Assembly: GCA_018697035.1 (NCBI GenBank)
Contig: JABHSE010000001.1
Span: forward strand, 29,653 to 93,652
Direction: 5' to 3'
Length of the DNA stretch: 64,000 bases
Source of the DNA: an archaeon
GTDB taxonomy: Archaea; Nanobdellota; Nanobdellia; Pacearchaeales; GW2011-AR1
Part shown: positions 3,309 to 49,180 of the stretch, piece by piece
How positions within the stretch are numbered: position 1 is the first letter of the stretch
Layout of the letters: every line of letters begins with the position of its first letter
Program-made: the position numbers and the translations under genes
The notes under the pieces: model-generated
What the model saw: only the letters and a program-made list of their open reading frames with translations
Databases searched by the model: none
Told to the model about the DNA's origin: nothing

Positions 3309-3358
3309 ATTTTCTTGAGATTAGAATTGTTTATAAATCTTTTGCAGTAATTAGTTTC

Positions 3359-4827: not shown

Positions 4828-4842
4828 GTGAAGTGTAGATAT

Positions 4843-4853
4843 TTTTATAAAGA
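4843..4853 (+). promoter_or_regulatory. TATA box tttttataaag for thyA-like gene
   Basis: About 26 nt upstream of ATG 4874. The same 10-mer precedes many genes in the window. Confidence 0.5.
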
Positions 4854-4873
4854 TTGGAGTTTTTTGTTTTGGT

Positions 4874-7404: not shown

Positions 7405-9588
7405 ATGGTAAAAAAAATAAGAAAGAGAGATGGGAGCGTTGTGTTCTTTCAGCCTGATAAAATTGAGAATGCGATTTGGAAGTCGGTTCGAGCTGTTGGT
7501 GGGAAGGATAAAGATAGGGCTAGTGAGGTAGCTGGGCAGGTTGTTGAAAAGTTAGAGCGGATTTATGGGGAGCATGGGGTTGCTGATGTTGAGGATGTTC
7601 AGGATTTGATTGAGAAGGTTTTAATTGAGGAAGGGCACGCGAAGGTTTCGAAGGCGTTTATTTTGTATCGGAAGAGTCGAGAGGAACTTCGGGATGTTAA
7701 GGGTTTGTTTGATACGATCGAGGCTGTTGAGGATTATATTGGGTTGAATGATTGGATGGTTAAAGAGAATTCTAATATGGGTTATTCGCTGCAAGGGTTG
7801 AATAATTATATTGCAACTAAGATTGTTTCGAATTATTGGATGAGGCGGATTTATCCCGAGGCTATCCGAAAAGTTCACGAGGCTGGAGATATTCATGTTC
7901 ATGATTTGGGGACGCTTGGGGCTTATTGTGTTGGTTGGGATTTGAAGGATTTATTGACGGTTGGGTTTAAGGGTGTGAAGGGTAAAGTTGAAAGTAAGCC
8001 TGCTAAACACTTGAGGACGGCGCTCGGACAGATGGTTAATTTCTTTTATACTTTGCAGGGTGAATCGGCTGGTGCTCAGGCATTTAGCAATTTTGATACA
8101 CTTCTTGCTCCGTTTATTCGTTATGATAAATTGGACTATAAGCAGGTTAAACAGTCGATGCAGGAATTTGTTTTTAATATGGCTGTGCCGACGAGGGTTG
8201 GTTTTCAGACGCCGTTTACGAATATCACTATGGATTTGGAGGTGCCGAATTACATGAAGGATGAGCATGTTGTCATCGGTGGAGAGTTGAAGATGGAGAA
8301 ATATGGAGATTTTCAGAAAGAGATGGATATTATTAATAAGGCGTTTGCGGAGTGTATGATTGAGGGAGATGCTAGTGGACAAGTTTTTACCTTTCCGATT
8401 CCGACTTATAACATTACGAAGGATTTTGATTTTGATAAGCCGGAGCATGAGTTGATATGGGAAATGACGGCGAAGTATGGGATTCCCTATTTTTCGAATT
8501 TTGTTAATTCTGATATGAAGCCTGAGGATTCTCGGAGTATGTGTTGTCGTTTGAGGATTGATAATACTGAATTGAAGAAGAGAGGTGGTGGTTTGTTTGG
8601 GGCGAATCCTTTGACTGGTTCGATTGGTGTTGTGACTATGAATATGGCGAGACTTGGTTATGTGTCGACGAGTGAGGATGATTTTATGGGAAGGCTGGAT
8701 CGTTTGATGGAGTTGGCAAAAGAGAGTCTTGAGATTAAGAGGAAGGCGATTGAGCGGTTTACTGAAATGGGGCTTTATCCTTATTCTAAGTTTTATCTTC
8801 GGGTTGTTCATGAAAGGTTTGGGGAGTATTGGAAAAATCATTTTGGGACGATTGGTTTGCTTGGTATGAATGAGTCTGTGAAGAATTTTATGCCTGGCGA
8901 AGATATTACTACGGAGAAGGGTAGGGCTTTTGCCTTGAAGGTTTTGGATTTTATGAGGGATAGATTGACAGGATATCAGGAGGAGACGGGGAGTATTTAT
9001 AATTTGGAGGCGACTCCAGGAGAAGGGACGACCTATAGATTTGCTCGGACGGATAAGAAGAGATTTGGCAGAATTATTGTTGCGAATGAGGAGGCTGTGA
9101 AGCTTGGGGCTAAGCCTTATTATACAAATTCGTCGCAGTTGCCTGTCGACTTTACGGACGATGTTTTTGAGGCGTTAGATTTGCAGGATGAAATCCAATG
9201 TAAGTATACTGGTGGGACGGTGTTTCATACTTTTGTTGGAGAGAGGATGACTACGGATGCTGTTAAGAATATGGTTAAGAAGATTGCGTTTGGTTATCAC
9301 TTGCCTTACTTTACGATTTCTCCTACGTTTTCGATTTGTCCTAATCATGGGTATTTGAGTGGGGAGCATGAGTATTGTCCGAAATGTGATTTGGAGATTG
9401 CGGAAGGGAATGTTGCTATTGCCGAGGATGTTGTTTTGGAGGAGGAGGCTGAGAAGAAGATTGTTGAGGTTGAAGATGCTGATGTTTTAATGAAGCCGAT
9501 TGCTATTGAGGTAAAGAAGGTTAGTGCGTTTGGCGAGGGTGAAGAATCTAAATTAAATAAGAGAGGTGATATTGATGGCGAGGACTAA
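7405..9588 (+). CDS. nrdD: anaerobic ribonucleoside-triphosphate reductase (class III RNR), NrdD
   Basis: N-terminal ATP-cone (VKKIRKRDGSVV). Core CCRLRIDNTELKKRGGGLFGANPLTGS. C-terminal Cys cluster with a Gly in ICPNHGYLSGEHEYCPKCD. 727 aa. Confidence 0.8.
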   Translation: MVKKIRKRDGSVVFFQPDKIENAIWKSVRAVGGKDKDRASEVAGQVVEKLERIYGEHGVADVEDVQDLIEKVLIEEGHAKVSKAFILYRKSREELRDVKGLFDTIEAVEDYIGLNDWMVKENSNMGYSLQGLNNYIATKIVSNYWMRRIYPEAIRKVHEAGDIHVHDLGTLGAYCVGWDLKDLLTVGFKGVKGKVESKPAKHLRTALGQMVNFFYTLQGESAGAQAFSNFDTLLAPFIRYDKLDYKQVKQSMQEFVFNMAVPTRVGFQTPFTNITMDLEVPNYMKDEHVVIGGELKMEKYGDFQKEMDIINKAFAECMIEGDASGQVFTFPIPTYNITKDFDFDKPEHELIWEMTAKYGIPYFSNFVNSDMKPEDSRSMCCRLRIDNTELKKRGGGLFGANPLTGSIGVVTMNMARLGYVSTSEDDFMGRLDRLMELAKESLEIKRKAIERFTEMGLYPYSKFYLRVVHERFGEYWKNHFGTIGLLGMNESVKNFMPGEDITTEKGRAFALKVLDFMRDRLTGYQEETGSIYNLEATPGEGTTYRFARTDKKRFGRIIVANEEAVKLGAKPYYTNSSQLPVDFTDDVFEALDLQDEIQCKYTGGTVFHTFVGERMTTDAVKNMVKKIAFGYHLPYFTISPTFSICPNHGYLSGEHEYCPKCDLEIAEGNVAIAEDVVLEEEAEKKIVEVEDADVLMKPIAIEVKKVSAFGEGEESKLNKRGDIDGED

Positions 9589-9707
9589 GTGTGAAGTTTG
9601 GAGTAGGGTTGTGGGTTATTTGAGACCGACTGTTCGATGGAATGATGGGAAATTAGCTGAATTTGGTGATAGGACTACTTTCGGTTCCTGCTAATTTTCC
9701 TGCTGAT

Positions 9708-9800
9708 TTCTAGCGGTTTATACTTCGTTGGACGAACGCTCACGTACTCTTGTACGCTTCGCAACCGTCCGCCTCGTCTAAACCTGCTGTAAATCAGCAT
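9708..9800 (+). repeat. structured intergenic element, family A copy 1
   Basis: tctagcggtttatacttcgtt-ggacg-aacgctca-cgtac-tctt-gtacg-cttcgcaac-cgtcc-gcctcgtctaaacctgctgtaaatcagca. Confidence 0.75.
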
Positions 9801-9860
9801 GGTTTTTATTATATGGTTTAGTATAATAATTATTATAAGTGGCTGTTGTGTTTTTTTATT

Positions 9861-18148: not shown

Positions 18149-18335
18149 TGATATAAGACACGACGCTAATGGAGGATTTACTGTTATGTATGATGCTGAA
18201 GTAGAGAAGGGAATTAAGAATGGCGCGTGTTATTTGGCTTGTAATACGAGTGAAGCGGGAAGGGGTTTGGTTTGTATGGATGATTTTTCGCGGGTTTGTT
18301 CTCTTAATGTTAAATATGTGGGAGATCAAGAATGA
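18141..18335 (+). CDS. small Cys-containing ORF (64 aa) wedged between rpoB and rpoA
   Basis: Its start overlaps the rpoB stop (ATGAATAA) and its stop overlaps the rpoA start (ATGA). It holds four Cys (CYLAC, VCMDD, RVC). Confidence 0.3.
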   Translation: MNNDIRHDANGGFTVMYDAEVEKGIKNGACYLACNTSEAGRGLVCMDDFSRVCSLNVKYVGDQE

Positions 18336-21300
18336 GACCGGTTAAGAAGCAGATTAAGGAGATGAGATTTTCTTTGCTTAGTCCTGAGCAGATTAAGAAG
18401 TTGAGTGTTGCTAAGATTGTGACGCCTGAGTTGTATGATGTTGATGGATATCCGGTTGATGGTGGTTTGATGGATTTGAGGCTTGGAGCTGTTGATCCTG
18501 GTGTTCGATGTCGGACTTGTGGTGGTCGATTGAAAGAGTGTCTTGGGCATCCTGGTATTATTGAGTTGGCTCGTCCTGTTGTTCATATTAAGTATTTGCC
18601 AATTATTGATTTGGTTTTAAGGGCGACTTGTGAGGCTTGTGGAAAGGCTTTGATTAAGGAAGAGAAGGATTTGGCTAAGGATTTGGTTGGTCGTATTAAG
18701 AGAGCTAAGGATGGGAAGAAGTGTCCGCATTGTTCGATTATTCAGGAGAAGGTTCGGCTTGAGAAGCCGACTAGTTTTAGAAGTGGTCGTAGGCGATTAT
18801 TTCCTTCGGAGATTAGGGAGAGATTGGTTAATGTTAGTGACGAGGATTTGAAGATTTTAGGAATTAATGCTGAGAGTTTGAGACCAGAGTGGGCGATTAT
18901 GACTTCGCTTTTGGTTCCGCCCGTGACTGTTCGTCCTTCGATTACTTTGGAATCTGGTGAGAGGAGTGAAGATGATTTGACTCATAAGTTGTCGGATATT
19001 ATTCGAAGTAATCAGAGGTTGTGGGAGAATTTGAATGCTGGTGCGCCTGAAGTTATTATCGAGGATTTGTGGGATTTATTGCAGTATCATATTACGACTT
19101 TTTTTGACAATTCGATTGCTAAGATTCCGCCTGCGCGTCATAGAAGTGGTCAGCCATTGAAGACGATTGAGGAGAGGATTAAGGGTAAGGAAGGTCGGAT
19201 TAGGAAGAACTTGGCTGGGAAGCGAGTTAATTATTCTGCTCGTAGTGTTATTTCGCCGGACCCTAGTTTGAAGTTGAATGAGGTTGGTGTGCCTTTTGAG
19301 GTTGCGAAGATTTTAACTGTTTCAGATAAGGTGACTAGTGTTAATTTGAAGAGGATGAAAGAGTTGGTTGCTCGGACTGAGTATCCTGCGGCGAATTATA
19401 TTTTGCGTGGCGATGGTAAGAGGAAGCGGATTGTTGAGGAGTTGCGTGATGAGTTAGTTGAGGAGTTGGAGGTTGGGTATGTTGTTGAAAGGCATTTAAT
19501 TGATGGAGACGTTGTTTTATTTAATCGGCATCCGTCGTTGCATAGGGCGAATTTGATGGCTCATTTTGTTAAGGTGATTCCTGGTAGGACATTTAGGATT
19601 CATCCTGCAGTTTGTGGTCCTTATAATGCGGATTTTGATGGGGATGAAATGAATATTCATGCACCTCAAACTGAAGAGGCTCTTGCTGAGGCAAAGGTTT
19701 TATTGAACATTAATCAGAATTTATTTTCTCCAAAAAATAGTATGAATTTTTTCGGTTGTGTTAAGGATGCTGTTAGTGGTAATTATATGTTAAGGGAAGC
19801 TGATATGAGTAAGGAAGATGCGACGCAGTTGTTGTATAGTTCGGGCGTTGAAATTCCGAGTTTGAATAAGATGAATGCTGGTGCGGATATTTTCGAGAAG
19901 ATTTTACCTAAGGCTGCTTCTGGTAAGGGTTTTGATTCTACGAGTTTTAAGACTGGTAAAGGTGAGCCTCTAAGGGTTGTTGATAGGGAATTGGGCAGAG
20001 AGGAAGCTATGGAATTATTGAGGCAGATCTTTGCTATTGGGACTACTTTTTTATCTAGGACTGGTTTCACGCTTTGTGTTGAGGATTTAGATGTTCCTGA
20101 TTCTGTGAAAGATAAGACTGCTTCTATTATTAATAAGGCTGAAGGAAAGACGGAGAAGATTATTGAGAGTTATTATGATAAGAGTATGGAGTTGATTCCT
20201 GGGAAGACTGCGGAGGAGACTAGGGAGAATCAAATTTTGCAAGTTTTAAATGAGACTAGGACTGATATTGGGGACGCTGTTAAGACTGGGTTTTCTAAGG
20301 ATAGTTTGGCGAGTAAGATGATTGGTAGTGGGGCTGGTGGTAGTTTGTTGAATATTACACAGATTGCTTGTTCGGTTGGGCAGCAGGTTTTGAATGGGAA
20401 GCGGATTGATTTTGGTTATACAGGTAGGACGTTGTCTTGTTTTAAGAAGGGTGATTTGTCGGCGAGTTCTGGTGGTTTTATTCATAGTTCTTTTATGAAA
20501 GGGATGCAACCTCAGGAATTTTTCTTTGGTGCTATGACTGGACGAGATGGTCTGATGGATACTGCCTTGAGGACTCCGAGGTCTGGTTATTTGTATAGGC
20601 GATTGGCTAATGCGTTGCAGGATTTGATTATGGCCTATGATGAGACGGTTAGAGATGCTTCTAATAATATTGTTCAGTTTAAGTATGGGCTTGATGGTAT
20701 TGATATTTCGGCTAAGCACTTGAATAAGAAGGTTGCGCCCGGTGAGGCTATTGGGGTTATTACTGCTCAGAGTTTTGGTGAATCTTCGACACAGATGGTT
20801 TTGAATACGTTCCATTCCGCTGGTGTTGCAGAGGTTCAGGTGACTACTGGTTTGCCTCGTATCATTGAGATTTTGGATGCTAGGAAGATGCCTAAGACTC
20901 CTTCTATGGAAATTTATTTGGATAAGGATTTCAATAATGAGAAGAGCGCTCGGACTATTGCGGAGAAAATTAAGGAAGTTAAATTGAAGGAAGTTATTAG
21001 CGATATTGCAATTGATTTTGGATCGAAGAAGATTAAGATTGGTGTGGATATGAAAGCTTTGCGGGGTGTTCATATTTCTTTAGATAAGGCTGTTGAGGTT
21101 TTGGGTGAGAAAGGTTTTGAGGTCAAGAAGATGAGTGATGGAATTGTTTTAGATATGAAGAAGGATGATTTTAAGGTTATATATAGGACTAAGGAGAAAA
21201 TTAAGGAAGTTATTTTGACTGGGATTAAGAAGATTACGCAGGTTTTGGTTGTGAAGCGAGGGAAGGATTATGTGGTTTTGACTGCGGGTTCTAACTTGAA

Positions 21301-21745
21301 GGATGTTATGGCGTTTAAGGGTGTTGATGCTGATAAGGTTACTAGTAATGATTTGCATGAGACGACGGCTGTTTTGGGTGTTGAGGCTGCACGGACTTTA
21401 GTTGTTCAAGAAATTAATAAGGTTATTAGTTCGCAGGGTCTTGCAGTAGACGGGAAGCATGCGATGTTGCTTGCGGATACTATGACAGCGTCGGGAACTG
21501 TTAAGGGTATTACTCGTATGGGGATCATTGGGGATAAGAATTCTATTTTAGCTAGAGCTTCATTTGAGACTCCGGTTAAGCAGTTTGTTCAGGCTACTAA
21601 GACTGGTAAGAGGGATGAGTTGAAGTCGGTTATCGAGAATATCATTTTGAATCAGCCTGTGCCTGTTGGGACTGGATTACCTGGGTTGTTGGTTAAGGTT
21701 ACTGGATCATTGGCTGATAAAAAGAAGGAGAAGAAGGGTAAATGA
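18332..21745 (+). CDS. rpoA: DNA-directed RNA polymerase subunit A, apparently fused A'+A''
   Basis: One 1137-aa ORF holds the A' catalytic NADFDGDEMN, the bridge-helix region, the A'' trigger-loop block GEAIGVITAQSFGESSTQMVLNTFHSAG, and a C-terminal VPVGTG. Confidence 0.9.
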   Translation: MRPVKKQIKEMRFSLLSPEQIKKLSVAKIVTPELYDVDGYPVDGGLMDLRLGAVDPGVRCRTCGGRLKECLGHPGIIELARPVVHIKYLPIIDLVLRATCEACGKALIKEEKDLAKDLVGRIKRAKDGKKCPHCSIIQEKVRLEKPTSFRSGRRRLFPSEIRERLVNVSDEDLKILGINAESLRPEWAIMTSLLVPPVTVRPSITLESGERSEDDLTHKLSDIIRSNQRLWENLNAGAPEVIIEDLWDLLQYHITTFFDNSIAKIPPARHRSGQPLKTIEERIKGKEGRIRKNLAGKRVNYSARSVISPDPSLKLNEVGVPFEVAKILTVSDKVTSVNLKRMKELVARTEYPAANYILRGDGKRKRIVEELRDELVEELEVGYVVERHLIDGDVVLFNRHPSLHRANLMAHFVKVIPGRTFRIHPAVCGPYNADFDGDEMNIHAPQTEEALAEAKVLLNINQNLFSPKNSMNFFGCVKDAVSGNYMLREADMSKEDATQLLYSSGVEIPSLNKMNAGADIFEKILPKAASGKGFDSTSFKTGKGEPLRVVDRELGREEAMELLRQIFAIGTTFLSRTGFTLCVEDLDVPDSVKDKTASIINKAEGKTEKIIESYYDKSMELIPGKTAEETRENQILQVLNETRTDIGDAVKTGFSKDSLASKMIGSGAGGSLLNITQIACSVGQQVLNGKRIDFGYTGRTLSCFKKGDLSASSGGFIHSSFMKGMQPQEFFFGAMTGRDGLMDTALRTPRSGYLYRRLANALQDLIMAYDETVRDASNNIVQFKYGLDGIDISAKHLNKKVAPGEAIGVITAQSFGESSTQMVLNTFHSAGVAEVQVTTGLPRIIEILDARKMPKTPSMEIYLDKDFNNEKSARTIAEKIKEVKLKEVISDIAIDFGSKKIKIGVDMKALRGVHISLDKAVEVLGEKGFEVKKMSDGIVLDMKKDDFKVIYRTKEKIKEVILTGIKKITQVLVVKRGKDYVVLTAGSNLKDVMAFKGVDADKVTSNDLHETTAVLGVEAARTLVVQEINKVISSQGLAVDGKHAMLLADTMTASGTVKGITRMGIIGDKNSILARASFETPVKQFVQATKTGKRDELKSVIENIILNQPVPVGTGLPGLLVKVTGSLADKKKEKKGK

Positions 21746-22792: not shown

Positions 22793-22817
22793 GTTTAATT
22801 TTTGATTCCTACTTGTA

Positions 22818-22905
22818 ATTTCTTGGTAAAAAAATGATTCACGTACGCCTGTACGCTTCACATTTTTTTACGCTGCGAAATTTCTGCGTATAAACCAAAA
22901 TTGTT
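22818..22905 (+). repeat. structured intergenic element, family B copy 1
   Basis: gtaaaaaaatg...[cgtac gcct gtacg]...catttttttac. An 11-bp A/U stem encloses the conserved GTAC hairpin. Confidence 0.7.
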
Positions 22906-22997
22906 AACAAACTTGGTTTTTATCGACGGGAAGTTTCTGTGGTATTAATTTTAAAGGGGCAAAGTTTTATAAATCAATTTTTCACTTAATTGTTACT

Positions 22998-23420
22998 ATG
23001 GGTTTGATGAATGGACGTAAGATGAAGAATAAGCGGAAGAAGTTTCGTGATAATAGGTTGCCTGATAAAAAGAAAAGGCTTGGTATTAGTTTGAAGTTTG
23101 ATCCACTTGGTCGGGCTAGTCAGGCTAAGGGTATTGTTGTTAAGAAGATGCAGAAGGAAGCTAAGCAGCCTAACTCTGGTATGAGGAAGTGTTGTAGGGT
23201 TCAGTTGATTAAGAATGGTAAAGAGGTTCCTGCTTTTATTCCTGGGAATTTGGCGCAGAAGTTTGTTGATGAGCATGATGAGGTTATTATTGAGAGGATT
23301 GGTGGGAAGCAGGGAAGGACTAAAGGGGATTTGTCTGGAGTTAGGTTTTGTGTTATTAAAGTAAACGATCAGCCATTGGAGAGACTTTGGATGGGTAAGA
23401 TTGAGAAGGGGCGACGATGA
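22998..23420 (+). CDS. rps12: ribosomal protein S12
   Basis: KKRLGISLKFDPLGRASQAKGIVVKKMQKEAKQPNSGMRKCCRVQLIKNGKEV matches S12/S23. TATA box at 22966-22975. Confidence 0.9.
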   Translation: MGLMNGRKMKNKRKKFRDNRLPDKKKRLGISLKFDPLGRASQAKGIVVKKMQKEAKQPNSGMRKCCRVQLIKNGKEVPAFIPGNLAQKFVDEHDEVIIERIGGKQGRTKGDLSGVRFCVIKVNDQPLERLWMGKIEKGRR

Positions 23421-23602
23421 ATCCCGAAGGTAATTTTCGAGTTCGTAAGAAGAGAGTTAGTGATTTGGTTAAGAAAACTACAAATCATATTAGTGCTTTT
23501 TACGACGATAGTACTAGTGGTGATGGTTTACCAAGTAAGAATAAGCGTTACCAATACTATTCTGTTCAGGAAAAAATAATCAAGTATGGAGGTGCGGATT
23601 AG
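23417..23602 (+). CDS. small basic ORF (61 aa) between S12 and S7
   Basis: Its start overlaps the S12 stop (ATGA). Its stop lies 2 nt before the S7 ATG. Confidence 0.3.
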   Translation: MNPEGNFRVRKKRVSDLVKKTTNHISAFYDDSTSGDGLPSKNKRYQYYSVQEKIIKYGGAD

Positions 23603-23604
23603 AT

Positions 23605-24201
23605 ATGGTAGAGATGAAGGTTTTTGGTTTGTTTGACGCTAGTGAAGTTAGAGTTGAGGATCCGGGTTTGAAGAAGGTTGTTAATTTGAATGCTAAGTTG
23701 ATGTTGAAGAGTCATGGTAGGATTAAGTGGGATCCAGCTAGGACTAAGGTTAATGTTGTTGAGAGATTGATTAATTTGTTGCAGGTTCCTGGAAGTCGAG
23801 GGAAGAAGCATAAGATTATTACTGGTTGGATTACGGGGAAGCAGACTCGGTGTACTGGGATTGTTATTGATGCGTTTAAGATAATTGAAGAGAAGACGAA
23901 GGAGAACCCTTTGAAGGTTTTTGTTCGGGCTATTGAGAATGCGGCTCCGAGAGATGAGACTACTACGATTGTTATGGGTGGTTCTAAATATCCTCAAGCA
24001 GTTGATGTTTCGCCACGACGAAGGTTGAATTTGGTTTTGAGGTATTTTGTTAATGGGTCCTATGATAAGGCGTTTAATAAGAAGGCGACGATTGTTGAGG
24101 CTTTGGCTAAAGAGATAATGTTGGCTGCGGATAATTCGGGTGAGTCTTATGCTGTTCGGAAGAGAGTGGATACGGAAAAACAGGCAGACGCGGCTCGGTA
24201 A
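23605..24201 (+). CDS. rps7: ribosomal protein S7
   Basis: 198 aa with the S7 pattern: VNLLQVPGSRGKK, the IVIDAFKIIEEKT region, and a C-terminal AVRKRVDTEK. Confidence 0.85.
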   Translation: MVEMKVFGLFDASEVRVEDPGLKKVVNLNAKLMLKSHGRIKWDPARTKVNVVERLINLLQVPGSRGKKHKIITGWITGKQTRCTGIVIDAFKIIEEKTKENPLKVFVRAIENAAPRDETTTIVMGGSKYPQAVDVSPRRRLNLVLRYFVNGSYDKAFNKKATIVEALAKEIMLAADNSGESYAVRKRVDTEKQADAAR

Positions 24202-24206
24202 TTTTA

Positions 24207-24296
24207 ATTTCTAGCGTTTCATACTTCGTTGCAAGAACACTCACGTACGCCTGTACGCTTCGCAACCTTGCGCCTTGTCTAAATCTGCTATAAATC
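24207..24296 (+). repeat. structured intergenic element, family A copy 2
   Basis: tttctagcgtttcatacttcgtt-gcaag-aacactca-cgtac-gcct-gtacg-cttcgcaac-cttgc-gccttgtctaaatctgctataaatc. Confidence 0.75.
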
Positions 24297-24320
24297 AAAA
24301 TTATTAACTGGAGTGTCATT

Positions 24321-24332
24321 ATTTTTATAAAG
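24321..24332 (+). promoter_or_regulatory. TATA box (tttttataaag) for leaderless ORF at 24353
   Basis: Consensus archaeal TATA about 25 nt upstream of the ATG. The same module follows element A3. Confidence 0.55.
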
Positions 24333-24352
24333 TTGGATTTTGTTCTTTTTTT

Positions 24353-24550
24353 ATGGATGATAGATTGGAGAAGATTCGTGCTTCGGAGAAGAAAATTAAG
24401 TTGGAGTTGATTGATGAAGGATGGGCACCTGTTGATAAGAAGGAGTTTGGTGGATACCTTTTCAAGATGATTGATGGTGAAAAGAATATTTATGCGCCTG
24501 ATGGTATGGGTGGGTATTATGTTAGGTATCGATTTTTTGTTAAAACTTAA
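24353..24550 (+). CDS. hypothetical small protein (65 aa)
   Basis: Leaderless ORF behind the A2 element and its promoter. No motif recognised. Confidence 0.35.
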   Translation: MDDRLEKIRASEKKIKLELIDEGWAPVDKKEFGGYLFKMIDGEKNIYAPDGMGGYYVRYRFFVKT

Positions 24551-24626
24551 AATTACTGACTTTTGTCATTTTTTTCAGAACTAGAGTATAATTATTTTTA
24601 TAAAGTGGTTATTTTTATACTTTACA

Positions 24627-24946
24627 TGAATAGGAAATATTTTGGGTATGCTGCTGGTTTGGCTGGTATGAGTATGTTTCTTTATGGATTGTTTTTTACG
24701 GATTTAAATCGTGTTTCCAAAAGTGATATTGTTGATGAGCTTCAGAGTGTCACTCGGGAGGTTGCGGCTTATAATTATGAGAATTTAGATAGGCTTGCGG
24801 AATTGGTTTCCGATTCTTCTAATGTAGAGAATTTGAGGTTATATTCTGATGCTAAGAATACTGAGCATAGGAAAGGTGTTTTGTTTTCTTTAGCTGGTTT
24901 GGCTGGAGTGATTGGTGGCCATGCTTTGGCTAAGAAAAAAGAGTAA
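24627..24946 (+). CDS. hypothetical small membrane protein
   Basis: TM segments (YAAGLAGMSMFLYGLFF and LAGLAGVIGGHAL). TATA box at 24594-24604. Confidence 0.35.
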
Positions 24947-25040
24947 GTAGTTGTTGTGACCAAGGGTGCTTTGGCTTGTTTTTTCGATTTGAATTTTATT
25001 ACAGCAAAACTTTATAAAAGGTTTTTTCGATTGCTTGTTC

Positions 25041-27212
25041 ATGGCTGCTGATATGACTGAGAAAGTTAAGGAATTACAGAATGATCCTACACATATTCGG
25101 AATATTGCTATTTGTGCACATATTGATCATGGGAAGACGACGTTTTCTGATAACTTACTTGCTGGTGCTGGGATGATGAGTGAGGCTTTGGCAGGGAAGG
25201 CGCGGACTTTGGATTTTCATGAAGATGAGGCGGAGAGAGGGATTACAATTGATTCAGCTTCGGTTTCTATGGTGCACACTCATGATAAGCAAGATTATTT
25301 GATTAATTTAATTGATACTCCAGGTCATGTTGATTTTGGTGGGGACGTTACTCGGGCTATGAGAGCGGTTGATGGTGCTATTGTTTTATCTTGTGCTAGT
25401 GAGGGGATTATGCCTCAGACTGAGACTGTTCTTCGTCAGGCTTTGAAGGAAAGAGTTAGACCCATTCTTTTTATTAATAAAGTTGATAGATTGATTCGAG
25501 AAGTTAAGCTTACTCCTGAAGAAATGCAGAAGAGGTTTATTGGAATTATTAATTCTGTTAATGAGTTGATTGCCGAGATTGCCGAGCCTGAGTATAAGCA
25601 AAAATGGCAAGTTGGTGTTGCTGATGGGACTGTTGCCTTTGGTAGTGCGTTTCATAATTGGGCATTGAGTATTCCGTATATGCAGAAGCATGGAATTAGT
25701 TTTAAAGAAGTCATTGAGGCTTATGAAGCTGGTGGAGAGGAATATAAGGTTTTAGCGAAGAGAGCTCCGATTCATGAGGTTATTTTGGGTATGGTTGTTG
25801 ATAATCATCCTAATCCTGTGACTGCTCAAGAATACAGAATCCCGAAGATTTGGCATGGTGATTTGGAGAGTGAGGCTGGAAAAGATTTTATGAATTGTAA
25901 TATTAAAGGTGAAGTTGCATTTGTTCCGATTAAGATTGTAATCGATCCTCATGCTGGTGAGGTTGCGGCTGGACGACTTTTTGGTGGGACTATTAAACAG
26001 GGTGATGAATTGTATATGAATATTGCTAAGACTAAGGTTAGGGCTCAGCAGGTTTCTATTTACAAGGGAGCTTCTAGGGTTCAGCTAAGTGAAGTTGTTT
26101 CTGGGAATATTGTTGGTATTGTTGGTTTGAAAGATGTTGTTGTTGGCGAGACTGTTTCTCGAAACCCGATTGAACCGTTTGAAGCTATTAGTCATTTGTT
26201 TGAGCCTGTTGTTACGAAGTCGATTAGTGCTAAGAGAACTGCTGATTTGCCGAAGCTGATTGAAATTTTGAGACAGATTGGGAAAGAGGATCCGAGTTTG
26301 AGGATTGAGATTAATGAAGAGACTGGGGAGTCGTTGATGTCGGGTATGGGAGAATTACATTTAGAGATTATCGAGAATAGAATTAAGAGCGAGAAGGGTC
26401 TTGAGATTGAGATGGGTCCTCCGATTATTGTTTATCGTGAGTCGGTTGCGAAGGTTAGTGATGTTGCTGTTGGGCGAACTCCAAATAAGCATAATGATTT
26501 TTTTGTTACGGTTGAGCCATTAGAGGAAGCGATTATTGAGGCTATTGCTGATGGGACCTTGCCAATCGGACGGATTAAGAAGAAAGATAAGGCGCTTGAT
26601 GAAACTTTGGTTGGTTTGGGGATTAGCCGAGATGAGGCGCAGCAGTATAGGGATATTTACAAGGGAAGTGTTTTTCAAGATAGGACGAAAGGTATTGTTC
26701 AGATTGGTGAGGTTATTGAATTGTTGCTTGATGCTTTTGAGCAGGTTATGGATGCTGGTCCGTTGGCGAGAGAGCCTTGTCATAAGATGAAGGTTTCTAT
26801 TGTTGATATGAAGTTGCATGAGGATGCTATTCATAGAGGCCCTGCACAGGTATACCCGGCTGTTCGTGATGCTATTAAGGAAGGTTTTGCTAAGGCTGTT
26901 CCTGTTATTTATGAGCCAGTTCAGGTTCATCAGATTGAAGCGCCGATTTCTTTTATGGGTGCTGTAACAAGTTTGGTTTCTACGAAGAGAGGGCAGTTGG
27001 TTGATGTCGAACAGGATGAGACTGGCGTGACTGTTCGTGCTGAGTTGCCGGTTTCGGAGATGATTGGTTGGACTAGCGATTTGAGGAGTTCGACTGAAGG
27101 TAGGGGTTCTTCGAGTTTGGTTAGTCAGACTTTTAAGAAGTTGCCTGGTGATATGCAAAGGAAGGTTATTGCGCAGATACGGGAGCGGAAGGGTTTAGCC
27201 GAAAACCAATAA
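25041..27212 (+). CDS. fusA: translation elongation factor 2
   Basis: G domain AHIDHGKTT and DTPGHVDF. 725 aa. Conserved position after S7. Confidence 0.95.
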   Translation: MAADMTEKVKELQNDPTHIRNIAICAHIDHGKTTFSDNLLAGAGMMSEALAGKARTLDFHEDEAERGITIDSASVSMVHTHDKQDYLINLIDTPGHVDFGGDVTRAMRAVDGAIVLSCASEGIMPQTETVLRQALKERVRPILFINKVDRLIREVKLTPEEMQKRFIGIINSVNELIAEIAEPEYKQKWQVGVADGTVAFGSAFHNWALSIPYMQKHGISFKEVIEAYEAGGEEYKVLAKRAPIHEVILGMVVDNHPNPVTAQEYRIPKIWHGDLESEAGKDFMNCNIKGEVAFVPIKIVIDPHAGEVAAGRLFGGTIKQGDELYMNIAKTKVRAQQVSIYKGASRVQLSEVVSGNIVGIVGLKDVVVGETVSRNPIEPFEAISHLFEPVVTKSISAKRTADLPKLIEILRQIGKEDPSLRIEINEETGESLMSGMGELHLEIIENRIKSEKGLEIEMGPPIIVYRESVAKVSDVAVGRTPNKHNDFFVTVEPLEEAIIEAIADGTLPIGRIKKKDKALDETLVGLGISRDEAQQYRDIYKGSVFQDRTKGIVQIGEVIELLLDAFEQVMDAGPLAREPCHKMKVSIVDMKLHEDAIHRGPAQVYPAVRDAIKEGFAKAVPVIYEPVQVHQIEAPISFMGAVTSLVSTKRGQLVDVEQDETGVTVRAELPVSEMIGWTSDLRSSTEGRGSSSLVSQTFKKLPGDMQRKVIAQIRERKGLAENQ

Positions 27213-27218
27213 TTTCAA

Positions 27219-27307
27219 TTTCTAGCGTTTCATACTTCGTTGCAAGAACACTCATGTGCGCTTGCACACTTCGTAATCTTGCGCCTCGTCTAAATCTGCT
27301 ATAAATT
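27219..27307 (+). repeat. structured intergenic element, family A copy 3
   Basis: About 90% identical to A2 over about 130 bp, including the downstream TATA. The inner hairpin changes to tgtgc-gctt-gcaca. Confidence 0.75.
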
Positions 27308-27363
27308 GGAATTGTTAAGTGGAGTGGCATTATTTTTATAAAGTTTAATTTATGAGTCAATTT

Positions 27364-27822
27364 ATGACTATTGACGGAAAAGAATTCAAGAAAGGTGGAG
27401 TCTATAAATTAGTTTCTAGTAATAGGCCTGAATATTTGAATTTAGTGGGGGTTAGAAAAGAGGTTTTATCGTCTGATAGTGTCAAATATGCTACGTTTTT
27501 TTCGGTTTTGCATGATTCTTCTGCCTTGATTAATTGTGATGATTTTTCGGCCTATAAGAACATTGTGCCTGTAAGAGACTTGAGAATTGAGGATAATGGA
27601 TTTTTGTCTTCGGTTAATAGTTGGAATGCTAAGCATATTTGGTATGATGCTAATATGGCTACGAGATCTGATTTTATGAAAAGTTGGTTGGAAGAATGTA
27701 CTGATGTTTTAAAGAAGCTTGGTTGTGAAAATATTGAAGATATTTTTCGAGGCAAGATAACTTGGGAAAAAGATAGTTGCGCTTACGGGGTTTTTGGTAG
27801 TGGTAGTGGTAAAAGATTATGA
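27364..27822 (+). CDS. hypothetical protein inserted between EF-2 and EF-1alpha
   Basis: ORF behind the A3 element and the TATA box at 27334-27344. The TATA-to-start distance favours the second ATG at 27364 as a leaderless start; the track starts at 27352. Confidence 0.4.
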   Translation: MTIDGKEFKKGGVYKLVSSNRPEYLNLVGVRKEVLSSDSVKYATFFSVLHDSSALINCDDFSAYKNIVPVRDLRIEDNGFLSSVNSWNAKHIWYDANMATRSDFMKSWLEECTDVLKKLGCENIEDIFRGKITWEKDSCAYGVFGSGSGKRL

Positions 27823-27924
27823 AGACCACTAACTTTAAAAACCAAAATCTATATTCTAAATTGTATCGTTTGGATAATATCTCTTCGACACAATTAAACT
27901 AACTAAATGAAAAAATAGAAAAAA

Positions 27925-29211
27925 ATGGCTAAAGAAAAACCAGGACTAAATGTTGTATTCGTTGGACACGTTGACCAGGGAAAATCTACTTGCGTTGGGC
28001 GAGTATTTTTTGATGGTGGCGCAGTCTCTGAACAAGAGATGAAGAAGTACAAGGAAGAAGCAGAGAAGCATGGTAAGGCTGGATTTGAATTCGCTTATGT
28101 GATGGATAATTTGAAGGAAGAGCGAGAGAGAGGAGTTACAATTAACTTGTCTTATAAGAAGCTTATTACTAAGAATTTTGAAGTTACTATAATCGATGCT
28201 CCGGGGCATAAGGATTTTGTTAAGAACATGATCACTGGTGCTTCGCAAGCGGATGCGGCTTTTTTGGTTGTTGGATGTGAAGACGGAGTTCAACCTCAGA
28301 CTAAAGAACACGTTTGGTTACTAAGGACTATGGGAGTTTCCCAGTTAGCGGTTCTTATTAACAAAATGGATGTTGTTGATTACGATCAGGCTAAGTTTGA
28401 TAAAGCTGCTGCTGATGTTAAAGAAGTTATCAAGCAAGCTGGTTATAACCCCGATACTACACCTTTCATTCCGGGCTCTGCTCTAATGGGAGAAGGTGTT
28501 TCACTTAAATCTGACAAGTTAGCATGGTACAAAGGACCAACTGTTTTAGAACAGATTGATAAGTTCGATGCTCCATCTAAACCAACAAACTTACCAATGC
28601 GTATGCCAATCCAGGATGTCTACGAGATTACTGGTATTGGAACTGTTCCTGTAGGAAAGATTGAAACAGGTATTATGAAAATCGGACAAAAGGTTATTGT
28701 ATTACCAGGACGATCTGGAAGCGGTATTCCAGGTGAGGTTCGAAGTATTGAAGCTCATCATGAGCAGTTAAAGGAAGGCGAAGCTGGAGACAATGTCGGT
28801 ATCAACATTCGAGGTGTTGGTAAGAAAGACATGGCTCGAGGCGACGTTATCTGTGAAGCTGCTAACCCGGCACCTATAGTTGAAGAATTTGAGGCACAAG
28901 TTGCTATCATTAATCATCCAACTGTTATTGCTAAAGGTTATACACCTGTATTCCATGTTCACACAGCTCAAGTTCCATGTCAATTCGTGGAATTAAAGGC
29001 TAAGTTGGATCCTGCTACTGGACAAGTAAGTGAAGAAAACCCTGACTTCTTGAAGAACGGAGATGTTGCTATTGTTAAGATCAAACCTGTTGGAAACCTA
29101 GTAATGGAATCCGCAGATAAGAATCCTAATATGGCACGGTTCGCAATTCGAGATGCTGGAGTTACAGTTGCTGCTGGCGTTTGTAAGTCTTTGACTGAAA
29201 AGAAATTATAG
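27925..29211 (+). CDS. tuf: translation elongation factor 1-alpha
   Basis: GHVDQGKST and DAPGHKDF. 428 aa. Confidence 0.95.
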
Positions 29212-29226
29212 TTTCTAGCGTGAATT

Positions 29227-29320
29227 TCTTGGTAAAAAAATCCTTACGTACCCACGTACGCCACGGATTTTTTTACACTTCGAACTTCACTGCTATAAAT
29301 TAAATTTCTTTCAGCTTTTT
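29227..29320 (+). repeat. structured intergenic element, family B copy 2
   Basis: gtttctagcgtgaatttcttg-gtaaaaaaatcc-ttacgtac-ccac-gtacg-cca-cggatttttttac. Confidence 0.7.
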
Positions 29321-29417
29321 TATTTTTTTATTTTGCCCTTTTTTGGGCTTTGAGATTTTTTTATTTGTATTGTTTAGTATACTATGTTTTTATAAATATT
29401 TGATTTTATTTATTTAC

Positions 29418-29660
29418 ATGAGAGAAAGATTGGAAATTAAAGAAATTAATGGAGCTGCTGTTGGGTATATCGTTGATCATTTCGCTGACGATGGTTCAAA
29501 AGCTGATTTTTATACTCCACTTGAAGGGAAACTTTGTGAATATCTTTCAAATATTGAGATTGGTTTAGATGTCGCTGTTGTTAATTCTTTAGAGGGTGGT
29601 CTTAGAGGAACTACGGATGTTATTATTAATTCTCGAAAGGGTATTTCTTCTGATTGTTAA
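29418..29660 (+). CDS. hypothetical small protein occupying the slot where S10 normally follows EF-1alpha
   Basis: TATA box at 29385-29394. The sequence MRERLEIKEINGAAVGY... does not resemble S10. Confidence 0.3.
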   Translation: MRERLEIKEINGAAVGYIVDHFADDGSKADFYTPLEGKLCEYLSNIEIGLDVAVVNSLEGGLRGTTDVIINSRKGISSDC

Positions 29661-29682
29661 TCACGATAATTCTTAAAAAGCT

Positions 29683-30258
29683 TTGAGTCGGGGTTTTGTT
29701 GTGGCAGTTCAGGTTAGAGAAAAGAGTATTGAAGAGATGGAGGTTAAGTTGGCTTCTATGGCTACGGCTTTCAATAAAATAACTTATTTGGAAAGTGCGT
29801 TGAAGGCTGTTGGTGGGAATTTTGAGATTAAGCGGTTTCTTTGGGGTGAGCTTGCGAAGTTATATGAGGAGCGGAAGATGTTTGAGCGGGCGGCTCGTGC
29901 ACTTGGGAACCTGGCAGGGATGGAGCCGATGTTTAGGGAGAGGATGGATTCTTATGTGATGGCGGCGGAGTTGTTTTGTCGGATTGGGAAGATAGAGGAT
30001 GCTGAGGATATGTTTGTTCGTGCATCTAGGGATGTTGCTGGAAATGGGAAAGAGAAGGTTATGTTGGCTCGAAAAAATGTTTATTTTGGTTTTGCTCGTG
30101 AGCTTGAGGGGAAAGGCAAGCGAGCTAGTGCGGTTAAGTTTTATGAGAAGTTGAATAAGATGAAGTTGGAAGATGTTGAGAAGGATGAAGTTGTTGAAAA
30201 GTTGCGGGTTTCCTATAAGGCGTTGGGGATGTTTCGTGAAGCTCGGCTATTGAGTTAA
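29683..30258 (+). CDS. hypothetical helical protein
   Basis: ORF on the coding strand with Ala/Glu/Arg-rich helical repeats. No motif recognised. Confidence 0.35.
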   Translation: MSRGFVVAVQVREKSIEEMEVKLASMATAFNKITYLESALKAVGGNFEIKRFLWGELAKLYEERKMFERAARALGNLAGMEPMFRERMDSYVMAAELFCRIGKIEDAEDMFVRASRDVAGNGKEKVMLARKNVYFGFARELEGKGKRASAVKFYEKLNKMKLEDVEKDEVVEKLRVSYKALGMFREARLLS

Positions 30259-30730
30259 AAAGAAAAAAAGAAAAAAGAAAAAAAATTAGATGTCTTCTTC
30301 TAAATCTAGTGCGGGTTCTCCGAAATCTTCTTCGGGGAAGTTGTTTAGGCTTTCAGGTTCTGTCATTTGTTTTTTTTGGGCTAGTCATCTTCAAGTTCTT
30401 CTTCATCGTCGAATTCCTCTTCTTCAATGTCGTCTTCTTTTTTGATTTCTATTTTTGTGCCCTCTTTTTTATTTGAGATTTGGTGCTTTGAAATCTTTAT
30501 AAATATTTGTGCTAAATTTTCTTATCTTTGGAAAGGGTAAAAGAATTTAAAGAGAGATTTCCTTGAGATTTTTACGCTTTTCTGTTTAAATGTGGATGTG
30601 CAAAAGTTTTTAAATGAAGATTGTTGTTTTTTGTTATTAGAGATAGCTAGATAGAGTTAGTATTATCATCACATTCATGTTTGGAAGGTAGGGAGATATT
30701 TCTAATATAACTAAATGGAGAAAATAAAAT

Positions 30731-31891
30731 ATGGCAAAAATAAGTCCAACGTCGATAAAGTATCAGATTGTTGCTAAGTTTAACGCTGACGGGCCGTTTC
30801 AAAAACCTGATGTAATCGGGGCTTTGTTCGGGCAGACAGAAGGTTTACTTGGTGCTGATATGGAATTACGAGAGCTGCAGAAAGAAGGAAAGATTGGTAG
30901 GATCGAGGTAGATTTGGTCACCGAAGGTGGTAAGACTACTGGAGAGATTACTATTCCGACTGCACTTGATAAGACTGAGACTACAATTATTGCGGCTTCT
31001 CTTGAGACAATTGATAAGATTGGTCCAACTGATGCTACGATTAAGATTGCAGATATCTCGGATGTTCGAGGCGGAAAGAGAGATTATATTATGGAGAGGG
31101 CGAAAGCTCTTCTTGCTGGTATATCTAATGAGGGAATGGATTCTACTGAGATGGAAACTGAACTTCGTGAATCGACTCGAATTTCTAAGGCTGTTACATA
31201 CGGAGAAGAAGGTCTTGCTGCTGGTCCAAATATTGATGACGAGAAAGAATTGATTGTTGTCGAGGGTCGAGCTGATGTTGTGAATATGTTGAAGCATGGT
31301 ATCAAGAATGTTATTGGTATGCAGGGAACTCGGTTTCCGAAAACTATTGCTACTTTATCCGAGACAAAGGAAATTACTTTGTTTGTTGATGGAGATAGAG
31401 GCGGTAAGTTGATTGCTCAAAATGTTTGTGACAATGCGAAGGTTGTATATATTGCGACTGCACCTGACGGAAAGGAAGTTGAAGAGCTAGCTGGTAAAGA
31501 GCTTTTGATCGCTTTGCGAAAGAAGGTTCCTGCTGCGGTTTTTTTGAAGAATGGTAGTGGAGCGCTTGCGACTGGTTCGCGACGAGCTACTGCATCTGTT
31601 GAAGGAATTGTTAGGCGAGAGTTGACTAATGACGATATTTCGAAGCTTCGAGAACTTAGTTCTGATATTAAGGGCAAGAATGTCTTGGTTGTGAATGATA
31701 GTTTAGAAGTTGTGAAAAACGTTTCAGCTTTGAGGCTCGGTTCGATTGATGCGAAAGATGCGTTTGTTTTGATGGTTGCGGAAGCTACTGGTGTTGTTGT
31801 TCAGGCTGCTGAGAGATTTCAATCTAAGGCGGTTGCGGCGAAGACATTTGAGAAGACTATTGTTACTGAGATTCAACTTGTATCACTTTAG
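30731..31891 (+). CDS. dnaG: archaeal DnaG-like primase (TOPRIM)
   Basis: N-terminus IKYQIVAKFNADGPFQKPDVIGALFGQTEGLLGADMELRELQKEGKIGRIEV matches the archaeal DnaG signature. A TOPRIM EGRADVVNM...DGDRGG follows. Confidence 0.75.
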   Translation: MAKISPTSIKYQIVAKFNADGPFQKPDVIGALFGQTEGLLGADMELRELQKEGKIGRIEVDLVTEGGKTTGEITIPTALDKTETTIIAASLETIDKIGPTDATIKIADISDVRGGKRDYIMERAKALLAGISNEGMDSTEMETELRESTRISKAVTYGEEGLAAGPNIDDEKELIVVEGRADVVNMLKHGIKNVIGMQGTRFPKTIATLSETKEITLFVDGDRGGKLIAQNVCDNAKVVYIATAPDGKEVEELAGKELLIALRKKVPAAVFLKNGSGALATGSRRATASVEGIVRRELTNDDISKLRELSSDIKGKNVLVVNDSLEVVKNVSALRLGSIDAKDAFVLMVAEATGVVVQAAERFQSKAVAAKTFEKTIVTEIQLVSL

Positions 31892-31909
31892 TAAAATCGA
31901 TTTTATTGG

Positions 31910-31995
31910 AAAATTTCTTGGTAAAAGAAATTCTCGCGTACCATATGTACGCCACGAATTTTTTTACGCTTCGAAATTTCCTCACTGAAATCAAT
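31910..31995 (+). repeat. structured intergenic element, family B copy 3
   Basis: gtaaaagaaattc-tcgcgtac-catat-gtacgcc-ac-gaatttttttac. Confidence 0.7.
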
Positions 31996-32049
31996 TTTGT
32001 TTGGGTCCGTTTTTGGGCTCTTTTTATTTTTTTATTTTTTTGGTTTTGA

Positions 32050-49049: not shown

Positions 49050-49125
49050 TGACTTATACTTCGTTAAAAGAACGCTCGTGTACGCTTGTACATGTCGCAA
49101 CCTTTTGCCTTGTCTAAGCCTACTA
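49046..49125 (+). repeat. structured intergenic element, family A copy 4
   Basis: tacttcgtt-aaaag-aacgctcg-tgtac-gctt-gtaca-tgtcgcaac-ctttt-gccttgtctaagcc. Both stems covary relative to A1-A3. Confidence 0.7.
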
Positions 49126-49180
49126 AGAATTGAAAGTAGGATTTAGTAATTGTTATAAAGATTGAGTTGTGTTTATTTTT

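Follow-up and report, generated by a model that had tools for sequence, protein, structure and literature searches.

Results

Seven copies of a hairpin repeat in the window

The window, the whole 64-kb stretch of archaeal DNA analysed here (positions 29,653 to 93,652 of contig JABHSE010000001.1, assembly GCA_018697035.1), carries seven copies of an imperfect hairpin repeat at gene ends, all on the + strand, of which three belong to a type termed B and four to a related type termed A. The window DNA was 100% identical to metagenome contigs from an ENA assembly and from Saanich Inlet, and its DnaG, labelled 'DNA primase [archaeon]' at NCBI, had its nearest named relatives in metagenome-assembled genomes (MAGs) of Candidatus Pacearchaeota and Nanoarchaeota. 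The three B copies had been described in an initial annotation, made from the letters of the window, and all of them were present as described; the coordinates given there were too short, by ~20 nt at either side, however, because further outer helices extend the copies to 22796-22905, 29203-29310 and 31892-32001.

Copy B1 (22796-22905, + strand; covariance model (CM) hit 22799-22901, 88.5 bits, E = 2.9e-19) follows a gene that had been named nusA and encodes a 141-aa KH-domain protein. The KH protein ends at a TGA, and the 5' TAA of B1 lies one codon on, in frame with the open reading frame (ORF); the outer stem of this copy is degenerate and its 3' end reads ..AAAAT-TGTT. Copy B2 (29203-29310, +; hit 29205-29306, 84.6 bits) follows the gene of EF-1alpha, a name that stood, and the TAG stop codon of this gene (29209-29211; ORF 27925-29211) is located within P1, the outer stem of B2, whose fold had a minimum free energy (MFE) of -30.4 kcal/mol (z = -6.2). 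Copy B3 (31892-32001, +; hit 31894-31997, 85.5 bits) follows the gene named dnaG, which encodes a Toprim protein with the NCBI name DNA primase; its first TAA (31892-31894) continues the dnaG frame immediately beyond the TAG stop codon of that gene (31889-31891), and its orthologue L020:5362-5463 (loci outside the window carry L numbers) was 82% identical. The E values of the three hits were 3e-19 to 3e-18, and the outer stem of each B copy runs from TAA or TAG to ..AAAT-TGTT.

The A-type copies are likewise on the + strand. A1 (9698-9804; 108.2 bits) starts 5 nt past the stop codon of a C-terminal fragment of an anaerobic ribonucleotide reductase, A2 (24199-24305; 107.8 bits) and A3 (27210-27316; 108.2 bits) start on the TAA stop codons of ribosomal protein S7 and EF-2, respectively, and A4 (49034-49140; 99.2 bits) holds the stop codon of a P-type ATPase (49047-49049) inside P1. 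The CM was built from the seven window copies, and a search of the 64 kb with filters off recovered exactly those seven, on the + strand, with E = 3e-24 to 3e-18; nothing more was found there below E = 0.5 except the reverse strands of the seven.

One family with two subtypes

The inner module of B1 (22826-22871, +) is composed of a GTAAAAAAATG arm, the hairpin P4 with the sequence CGTAC-gcct-GTACG (22842-22855) and a CATTTTTTTAC arm with T7 at 22863-22869. The corresponding parts are GTAAAAAAATCC, P4 (29247-29260) and GGATTTTTTTAC (T7 at 29268-29274) in B2 (29232-29276, +), and GTAAAAGAAATTC, P4 (31937-31951) and GAATTTTTTTAC (T7 at 31959-31965) in B3 (31921-31967, +). The pairing proposed for the A-tract and U-tract arms was borne out, the arms of B1 (GTAAAAAAATG/CATTTTTTTAC) and B2 (GTAAAAAAATCC/GGATTTTTTTAC) being 100% complementary and those of B3 pairing with one G-U, and a long A/U-rich helix does enclose a YGURC hairpin in B. 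The motif TTTTTTTACRCTKCGAA has exactly three occurrences in the window against 0.14 expected, and CGTAC-N3-7-GTACG has five, all on the + strand, where shuffles expect 0.00.

Copies of both families were aligned end to end with MAFFT, and the common fold was derived with RNAalifold. The alignment spanned the full length of both, as expected from the earlier proposal that B is a structured element related to A, and 28 pairs made up the hairpin shared by the seven window copies, 18 of these pairs having compensatory changes. A and B are two subtypes of one imperfect hairpin of ~107 nt. They differ chiefly in the middle helix, which is GUAAAA(N)../..UUUUUAC in B, whereas A has UGCAAG/CUUGCG-like helices flanked by AAC/AAC loops; mosaic A/B copies also occur, for example L118:6615 and L060:3944. 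The family-A-like 5' block of B2 had been taken as the link between the families. The outer stem ATTTCTAGCG.../...CTGCTATAAAT turned out to be the rule for B in other genomes and not a peculiarity of B2.

Consensus structure and covariation

In 76 distinct B copies the consensus comprises 39 pairs in four helices, P1-P4. Standard pairs filled 93.9% of cells, compared with 34-50% when the partners were slid by 1-3 columns, 27 of the 39 pairs had changed on both sides, and cells with double changes numbered 370 against 50-86 in the slid controls. No shuffle of 500 matched any of the observed B pairing measures, and the covariation first noticed in three copies extends to the 76. The A type (19 copies plus one B row) had 34 pairs, 27 of them compensatory. 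P1 was the most variable part and covaried heavily, and the core was almost invariant (with AAUUUCUUGGUAAAA as its 5' and UUUUUACRCUGCGAA as its 3' side), a conservation that is partly imposed by the search pattern, although the same core was present in B copies retrieved with an independent outer-stem pattern.

The internal loops are pyrimidine-rich and conserved, as is the P4 module, while the stems covary, so that the element combines covariation-supported helices with conserved unpaired nucleotides in the manner of structured RNAs generally; a hairpin selected as DNA would give the same covariation signal. Wobble pairs recur at particular columns of the sense strand. Of the 76 B copies, 60 have G-U at 22/98 and 30 have U-G at 4/115, and in the A type U-G is found at 34/80 in 19 and at 3/111 in 15 of the 20 copies; such conserved G-U columns fit a sense RNA hairpin. 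C/D box motifs (UGAUGA/CUGA) formed no conserved columns and appeared in a few variants only, in alignments read by eye with no dedicated scan, and neither a 3-4-3 bulge-helix-bulge (BHB) nor the tandem G-A of a K-turn was seen in the alignments, again by eye and with no dedicated tools.

Position at gene ends

The claim that B copies lie at gene 3' ends was upheld on the larger sample, in which 83 of 97 hits had a same-strand ORF ending at the element. Distances from the stop codon to CM model position 1 were quantised, at -1 (36 copies), -7 (19), -14 (6), -20 (3) and 0 to +6 (10). The 5' flank is T in 63%, A in 91% and A in 87% of copies, so that the element begins U-A-A, and other stop triplets stand at element positions 5-7, 12-14 and 18-20, of which the upstream gene uses one; 62 of 80 ORFs were in frame with the first TAA of the element. 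At the 3' flank, T-G-T-T occurred at 88%, 55%, 77% and 73%, the G of this motif being the pairing partner of the U in the stop codon.

The upstream protein genes have diverse housekeeping roles. They encode S7 (9 species), EF-1alpha (8), EF-2 (7), DnaG, the KH protein and RpoA, and also GyrA, RadA, Kae1, aIF-1A, CTP synthase, RtcB, GAPDH, dUTPase, rubrerythrin, NrdD and a P-type ATPase. RNA genes are followed by the element as well. In at least three rRNA operons (L045, L047 and L113/L115), a B copy begins 1-3 nt after 16S rRNA, in the 16S-tRNA-23S spacer. A tRNA gene (L062) has a copy starting 4 nt beyond its end, and a signal recognition particle (SRP) RNA gene (L085) is likewise followed by one. 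The element is not specific to translation.

Two other assignments were rejected. A recoding signal of the SECIS or PYLIS kind does not agree with a stop codon whose position varies (-1, -7, -14, -20) or with copies that follow RNA genes. A 5' leader or riboswitch of the next gene does not agree with the TATA-like box that comes after the element, or with copies that also precede convergent genes. Downstream of B1, the TATA-like box TTTTATAAAT (22966-22975, +), read from the sequence by eye, lies ~25 nt before the S12 ATG (22998); the next promoter thus follows B1, which is accordingly not a 5' leader.

A promoter-like motif, AACTGGAGTG..ATTATTTTTATAAAG, occurs in the window at 4826-4878, 24306-24358, 24579-24631, 27317-27369 and 49134-49186, and also after elements in L102 and L053. 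It recurs ~22-25 nt before start codons, a spacing that suggests leaderless mRNAs. A 142-nt repeat termed D1 (four copies, two of them 88% identical) consists of the A-type element plus this motif.

Distribution across genomes and metagenomes

A genome scan with the outer-stem pattern, one genome per species, gave 28 stretches, and true copies as judged by the CM were found only in Candidatus Woesearchaeota, Candidatus Pacearchaeota and unclassified 'archaeon' MAGs; the bacterial matches of the pattern were due to chance by the same measure. From metagenomes of marine, lake, groundwater and sediment origin, the B-core pattern retrieved 85 stretches, and ~80 of these were confirmed as copies. 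The hits analysed came to 97 (93 distinct), a few more being added afterwards. Outside the window, ~100 further copies are now recorded in MAGs of Candidatus Pacearchaeota, Woesearchaeota and unclassified archaea and in metagenomes. The B pattern had 0 hits in viral contigs, and none of the 22 hits of the A-core pattern was an element by CM.

The window searched against Rfam 15 at the gathering threshold returned only 4 tRNAs, L006 and L020 returned nothing at E <= 1, and other loci returned only rRNA, tRNA and SRP RNA. The literature searched on stem-loops of DPANN archaea and Pacearchaeota, on archaeal hairpin terminators and on archaeal MITEs (miniature transposable elements with inverted repeats) at stop codons held no description of the element.

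One of the relatives, L118, is GCA_013166765.1 (JABKBV010000001.1, 569 kb), which is labelled Methanococcoides sp. SA1. Its DnaG was 84% identical to that of the window, with the same gene order and A-type elements, and judging from these features the contig is a member of this Pacearchaeota-like clade, and either the label is wrong or the bin is contaminated, in all probability. An A-type copy downstream of the RNA polymerase A gene (L077:2413-2560) has ~40 nt inserted in its 3' arm before the usual ..CTGCTATAAATCAAAAT-TGTT end.

Turnover and conservation of the element

Among nine orthologous copies after EF-1alpha, 93.7% of cells were paired and 12 pairs were compensatory, and the element was 77-82% identical between species, where the four-fold sites of EF-1alpha had 61-69% identity. 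Between genomes, copies sharing a site were only slightly more alike (0.742) than unrelated copies (0.701), and several nearest neighbours were other sites in other genomes. B1 of the window, for example, was nearest to the copy after S7 in L053 (84%), with which it has an unusual CTACTTGT/CTGCGTATAAA stem in common.

The two subtypes replace one another at orthologous sites. The site after EF-2 is occupied by A in the window and by B in L006, L077, L060 and L053; that after S7 is occupied by A in the window, L006, L060 and L118 and by B in six other species; and that after dnaG is occupied by B in the window and L020 and by an A-like core within the same outer stem in L060. L118 lacked the element after both EF-1alpha and dnaG, and L119 lacked it after dnaG, so that a family with seven copies in 64 kb is also polymorphic for presence. 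In two more relatives, judged by the gene spacing on the syntenic contigs P0112 and P0076, 3-46 nt separated S7 from EF-2, leaving no room for an element after S7 or EF-2. These are multicopy, extragenic, imperfect palindromes at gene 3' ends, as are repetitive extragenic palindromic (REP) sequences, and gain and loss, core swapping and strict strand use point to a REP/MITE-like repeat family. No target-site duplication was detected with k = 2-6 and offsets of +/-4, the sole excess being a self-complementary AATT inside the hairpin, and no larger parent element with the same arms was present in the 0.87 Mb of DNA searched.

Every copy was on the G-rich strand, including those at >=7 convergent gene pairs, and the orientation of genes and that of replication are therefore inseparable in these data. 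The window is composed of 27.6% G, 11.5% C, 36.2% T and 24.6% A. Where genes lie on the + strand its GC skew is +0.3 to +0.6, and where they lie on the minus strand it is still positive, at +0.1 to +0.2; the cumulative skew is monotonic, and the same skew, unusually strong for an archaeon, was present in every related clade locus (e.g. L020, L060, L118).

Oligo-T blocks downstream of the element

Separate oligo-T blocks lie beyond the element. After B2, the block at 29316-29349 (+) consists of T6, T7, T4 and then GCCC-T6-GGGC, and after B3, that at 32010-32041 (+) consists of T5, T5, T7 and T7; downstream of B1, a small AACCAA/TTGGTT hairpin precedes a T5 run (22917-22921, +). Of the copies, 54% had a T run of >=5 within 45 nt downstream, as against 22% of random windows. 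Tracts of 4-7 U are an archaeal termination signal, and two or more U4 tracts lead to efficient aCPSF1-assisted termination in Methanococcus (PMC8716108). Oligo-T signals are thus found twice at these sites, as the internal T5-7 of B and as the separate blocks after B2 and B3.

The relatives that lack the element retained the blocks. Of three relatives compared, L118 has the EF-1alpha gene nearest to that of the window (nucleotide identity 0.867), and its element-free EF-1alpha stop codon is directly followed by T7-A-T5-A-T4-GCCCC..GGGGC (TTTTTTTATTTTTATTTTGCCCC..GGGGC). Blocks of the T6/T7/T6 type directly follow the element-free dnaG stop codons of L118 and L119, and blocks of the same kind lie 9-12 nt downstream of B2 and B3 in the window. 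Because the blocks were kept where the element is absent, the element is an optional insert, set between a stop codon and the canonical terminator of the gene, and retention of that terminator implies that polymerase normally traverses the element. The true terminator of the EF-1alpha unit is likely to be the block at 29316-29349.

The T blocks after EF-1alpha and dnaG have within or beside them a small hairpin of the form GCCC-T(n)-GGGC or GGGTCC-T5-GGGC. Its sites are 29335-29348 and 32003-32019 in the window, L118:8609-8625 and L020:3066-3090, and this hairpin is conserved between species with or without the large element.

Discussion

In this study, we concluded that the B copies are the A/U-rich-core subtype of a new, clade-specific repeat family of gene-end hairpins, which resembles the REP, ERIC and Correia repeats of bacteria. 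Under the model that we consider the most likely, at about an even chance, the element would be co-transcribed as a hairpin of the 3' trailer, its base containing the stop codon, and it would protect or insulate the upstream RNA ahead of the true oligo-T terminator. Each copy lies in the few bases between a gene end and the oligo-T terminator of that gene or the next promoter, with its UAA usually serving as the stop codon, and for this reason it would be transcribed as the 3' trailer of the upstream gene. The RNA would fold into a ~40-bp hairpin (P1-P4) with conserved pyrimidine-rich internal loops, and termination at the downstream U tracts would leave this hairpin as the 3'-terminal structure of the RNA, where it would hold back exonucleolytic decay in the 3'-to-5' direction and insulate adjacent transcription units from each other, as bacterial REP, ERIC and Correia elements do. 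The family has probably spread as a REP/MITE-like element and been kept by selection on the hairpin.

Several observations weigh against this model. The mean MFE was -31.0 kcal/mol for the sense and -34.2 kcal/mol for the antisense strand, with the sense strand more stable in only 22 of 92 cases, and outside the wobble columns G-U (48) and A-C (55) mismatches were about equal, so that the selected hairpin could be DNA. Exclusive use of the G-rich strand, convergent pairs included, is not predicted by a purely RNA-level role. The trailers of 16S rRNA, tRNA and SRP RNA must be removed, and stabilisation is therefore not the whole story. The genome fragments examined revealed no trans-acting partner, be it a nuclease, a binding protein or a transposase, and transcription of the element and the 3' ends of its transcripts are deduced from position. 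The element does lie upstream of the oligo-T signal, however, and the sense hairpin should for that reason be present on transcripts. We regard an RNA-level function as the best-supported inference, with the sense/antisense and mismatch measures if anything to the contrary.

The same measures would suit a selfish palindromic element mobile at the DNA level (like the PATEs derived from IS200/IS605, REPINs or MITEs), in which an enzyme reads the hairpin of single-stranded DNA, any RNA effect is incidental, and copies survive only at harmless sites, that is, at a stop codon or the end of an RNA gene. Orthologous sites of close relatives differ in presence, the same sub-variant recurs at different sites in different genomes, and cores are mosaic or swapped; the strict G-rich-strand orientation is what single-strand transposition tied to replication predicts, the antisense strand folds at least as stably as the sense strand, the counts of sporadic G-U and of A-C mismatches are near equal, and a 5' TA with A+T richness is typical of prokaryotic MITEs (PMC2229807). 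Such an origin of the whole pattern nevertheless seems rather unlikely to us. The element has no target-site duplication outside the hairpin, no larger element with the same arms in 0.87 Mb and no copies in viral contigs; its termini are most variable and its core most conserved, the reverse of MITEs driven by terminal inverted repeats; copies within a genome are only 61-82% identical, which excludes a recent burst; and the pairing of orthologous copies has been kept far beyond neutral decay. In the initial annotation, B had instead been read as a bidirectional, hairpin-dependent intrinsic terminator, with an A-tract, a hairpin and U7, and our results did not support that reading. A hairpin-assisted and possibly bidirectional terminator of the archaeal RNA polymerase, formed by the A-tract/hairpin/U5-7 core of B, would account for the T run of >=5 that each B copy has in the P3 3' arm, paired with an A tract, for the length of this run, which matches the archaeal signal of 4-7 U (PMC8716108), for the position of all copies at gene ends, and for the invariant GGUAAAA/UUUUAC, a sequence constraint beyond pairing. 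The U run is internal, however, as the 3' arm of P3, and ~30 nt of conserved, covarying P2 and P1 3' arms lie beyond it, a selected structure that needs polymerase to read through. The run is 7 nt away from P4, a stem of only 5 bp, where an intrinsic terminator has its U tract within <=2 nt of the stem-loop. A cores, which have no internal T run, replace B at the same sites, and the conserved multi-T blocks downstream are present even without the element. The genes after B1, B2 and B3 are all on the + strand, which leaves a bidirectional terminator nothing to stop at the three window sites, and B copies between 16S rRNA and tRNA or 23S rRNA argue against efficient termination, provided that 16S and 23S rRNA are co-transcribed there. 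We therefore hold this terminator to be quite improbable, while partial termination may occur at the internal U run of B, T5-7 being a plausible archaeal pause or termination signal.

The element might also be a signal for 3'-end formation or processing, a hairpin punctuation in which a lineage-specific protein or nuclease reads the loops and P4 and cuts or marks the ends of mRNA, 16S rRNA, tRNA and SRP RNA. The element boundary is 0-4 nt from the end of every gene class, loops and P4 are conserved while stems covary, a pattern typical of RNAs recognised by proteins, and the hairpin rule of Mimiviridae provides a precedent (PMC4402537). Cleavage at the 5' base would, however, remove the stop codon that lies 5-20 nt inside P1 in ~30 of 83 cases, the element is found at only ~1 in 9 window genes and is dispensable at orthologous sites, and no candidate enzyme was identified; of the explanations considered, we give this one the smallest chance. 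A broader proposal, that a conserved, protein-recognised hairpin is a general signal for 3'-end formation or protection (mRNA, 16S rRNA, tRNA and SRP RNA) in archaea of the Pacearchaeota/Woesearchaeota type, is in our judgement distinctly unlikely. Were it true, a hairpin-dependent pathway of RNA 3' ends would exist in archaea alongside oligo-U and aCPSF1, with the stop codon built into the base of the signal.

Two further observations concern the neighbourhood of possible terminators. In the rRNA spacer, the element is followed by a conserved A+T-rich stretch that could be a promoter, and a 16S leader-trailer stem enclosing the element had a duplex energy no better than that of shuffles. In the window, convergent genes abut with 0-2 nt between their stop codons (37750/37751, 55997/55999, 60888/60891 and 11044/11046), leaving no space for a terminator.

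Several known repeats resemble the element. REP/BIME, ERIC (IRU) and Correia (CREE/NEMIS) sequences are likewise short (35-155 bp), non-coding, A+T-rich or palindromic, extragenic and present in many copies; they are co-transcribed and strain-variable, and their hairpins alter mRNA stability or processing (PMC2229807, PMC2649163, PMC3184786), an effect that we infer for the present element. In contrast to them, it has a DPANN archaeal host, is anchored at the stop codon and always sense to the upstream gene, has a conserved core with variable and covarying termini, lacks a TA duplication, an IHF-type motif and a known partner enzyme, and also follows 16S rRNA, tRNA and SRP RNA genes. With MITEs such as the Sulfolobus SM elements and RUP it has in common its size, non-coding nature, inverted repeats, A+T richness, 5' TA and presence/absence polymorphism (PMC10969869, PMC2229807), but no target-site duplication and no autonomous element with matching ends were found (0.87 Mb), its copies are old and divergent with maintained structure, and its orientation and position are strict.

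Known modes of 3'-end formation offer partial likenesses too. The inner part of B has the A-tract/stem-loop/U-tract layout of bacterial bidirectional Rho-independent terminators; unlike theirs, its U tract is embedded in a larger hairpin, its apical stem has 5 bp and is not G+C-rich, separate oligo-T terminators lie downstream, and one subtype, A, has no U tract. In Mimiviridae, A+T-rich palindromes also stand right after coding regions, where they define transcript 3' ends (PMC4402537), but the viral palindromes have unrelated sequences, serve most genes and are cleaved and polyadenylated by viral enzymes, whereas here a single homologous family serves a minority of genes. The T5-7 run of B and the downstream T blocks match the archaeal oligo-U signal read with aCPSF1/FttA (PMC8716108), which needs no hairpin, and the element adds a large conserved hairpin upstream of it.

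The family has an unusual evolution, with a conserved core, covarying termini, core swapping and strict strand bias, and it bears on how repeats persist in extremely streamlined genomes. Archaeal 3'-end biology has been described almost entirely in terms of oligo-U tracts and aCPSF1/FttA. DPANN archaea are uncultured, and to our knowledge their RNA biology is essentially undescribed. The element is a candidate for hairpin-based 3'-end protection or processing in Archaea, and our analysis corrects the tempting view of a bacterial-type terminator in an archaeon. Furthermore, since it supplies the C-terminal codons and stop codons of many genes, it could aid the annotation of gene ends in these MAGs.

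Other features of the window

The ORF after EF-1alpha had no Pfam match, and its identity as S10 was not confirmed. The main NrdD ORF spans 7405-9588, and the C-terminal glycyl-radical segment (..RVVGY..) lies in another frame at 9566-9694, with an overlap of 23 nt; this break in the frame may reflect a frameshift, a programmed shift or a split gene. Inside the ORF 3224-4291, at 3843-3925, a 24-nt repeat (CGGGTGGTTCA..) stands three times in tandem. Most archaea have separate A' and A'' genes for RNA polymerase. At 18332-21745, the window has one ORF of 1137 aa with Rpb1 domains 1-5, followed by an ORF of 87 aa, and its RNA polymerase A subunit appears to be unsplit and shortened.

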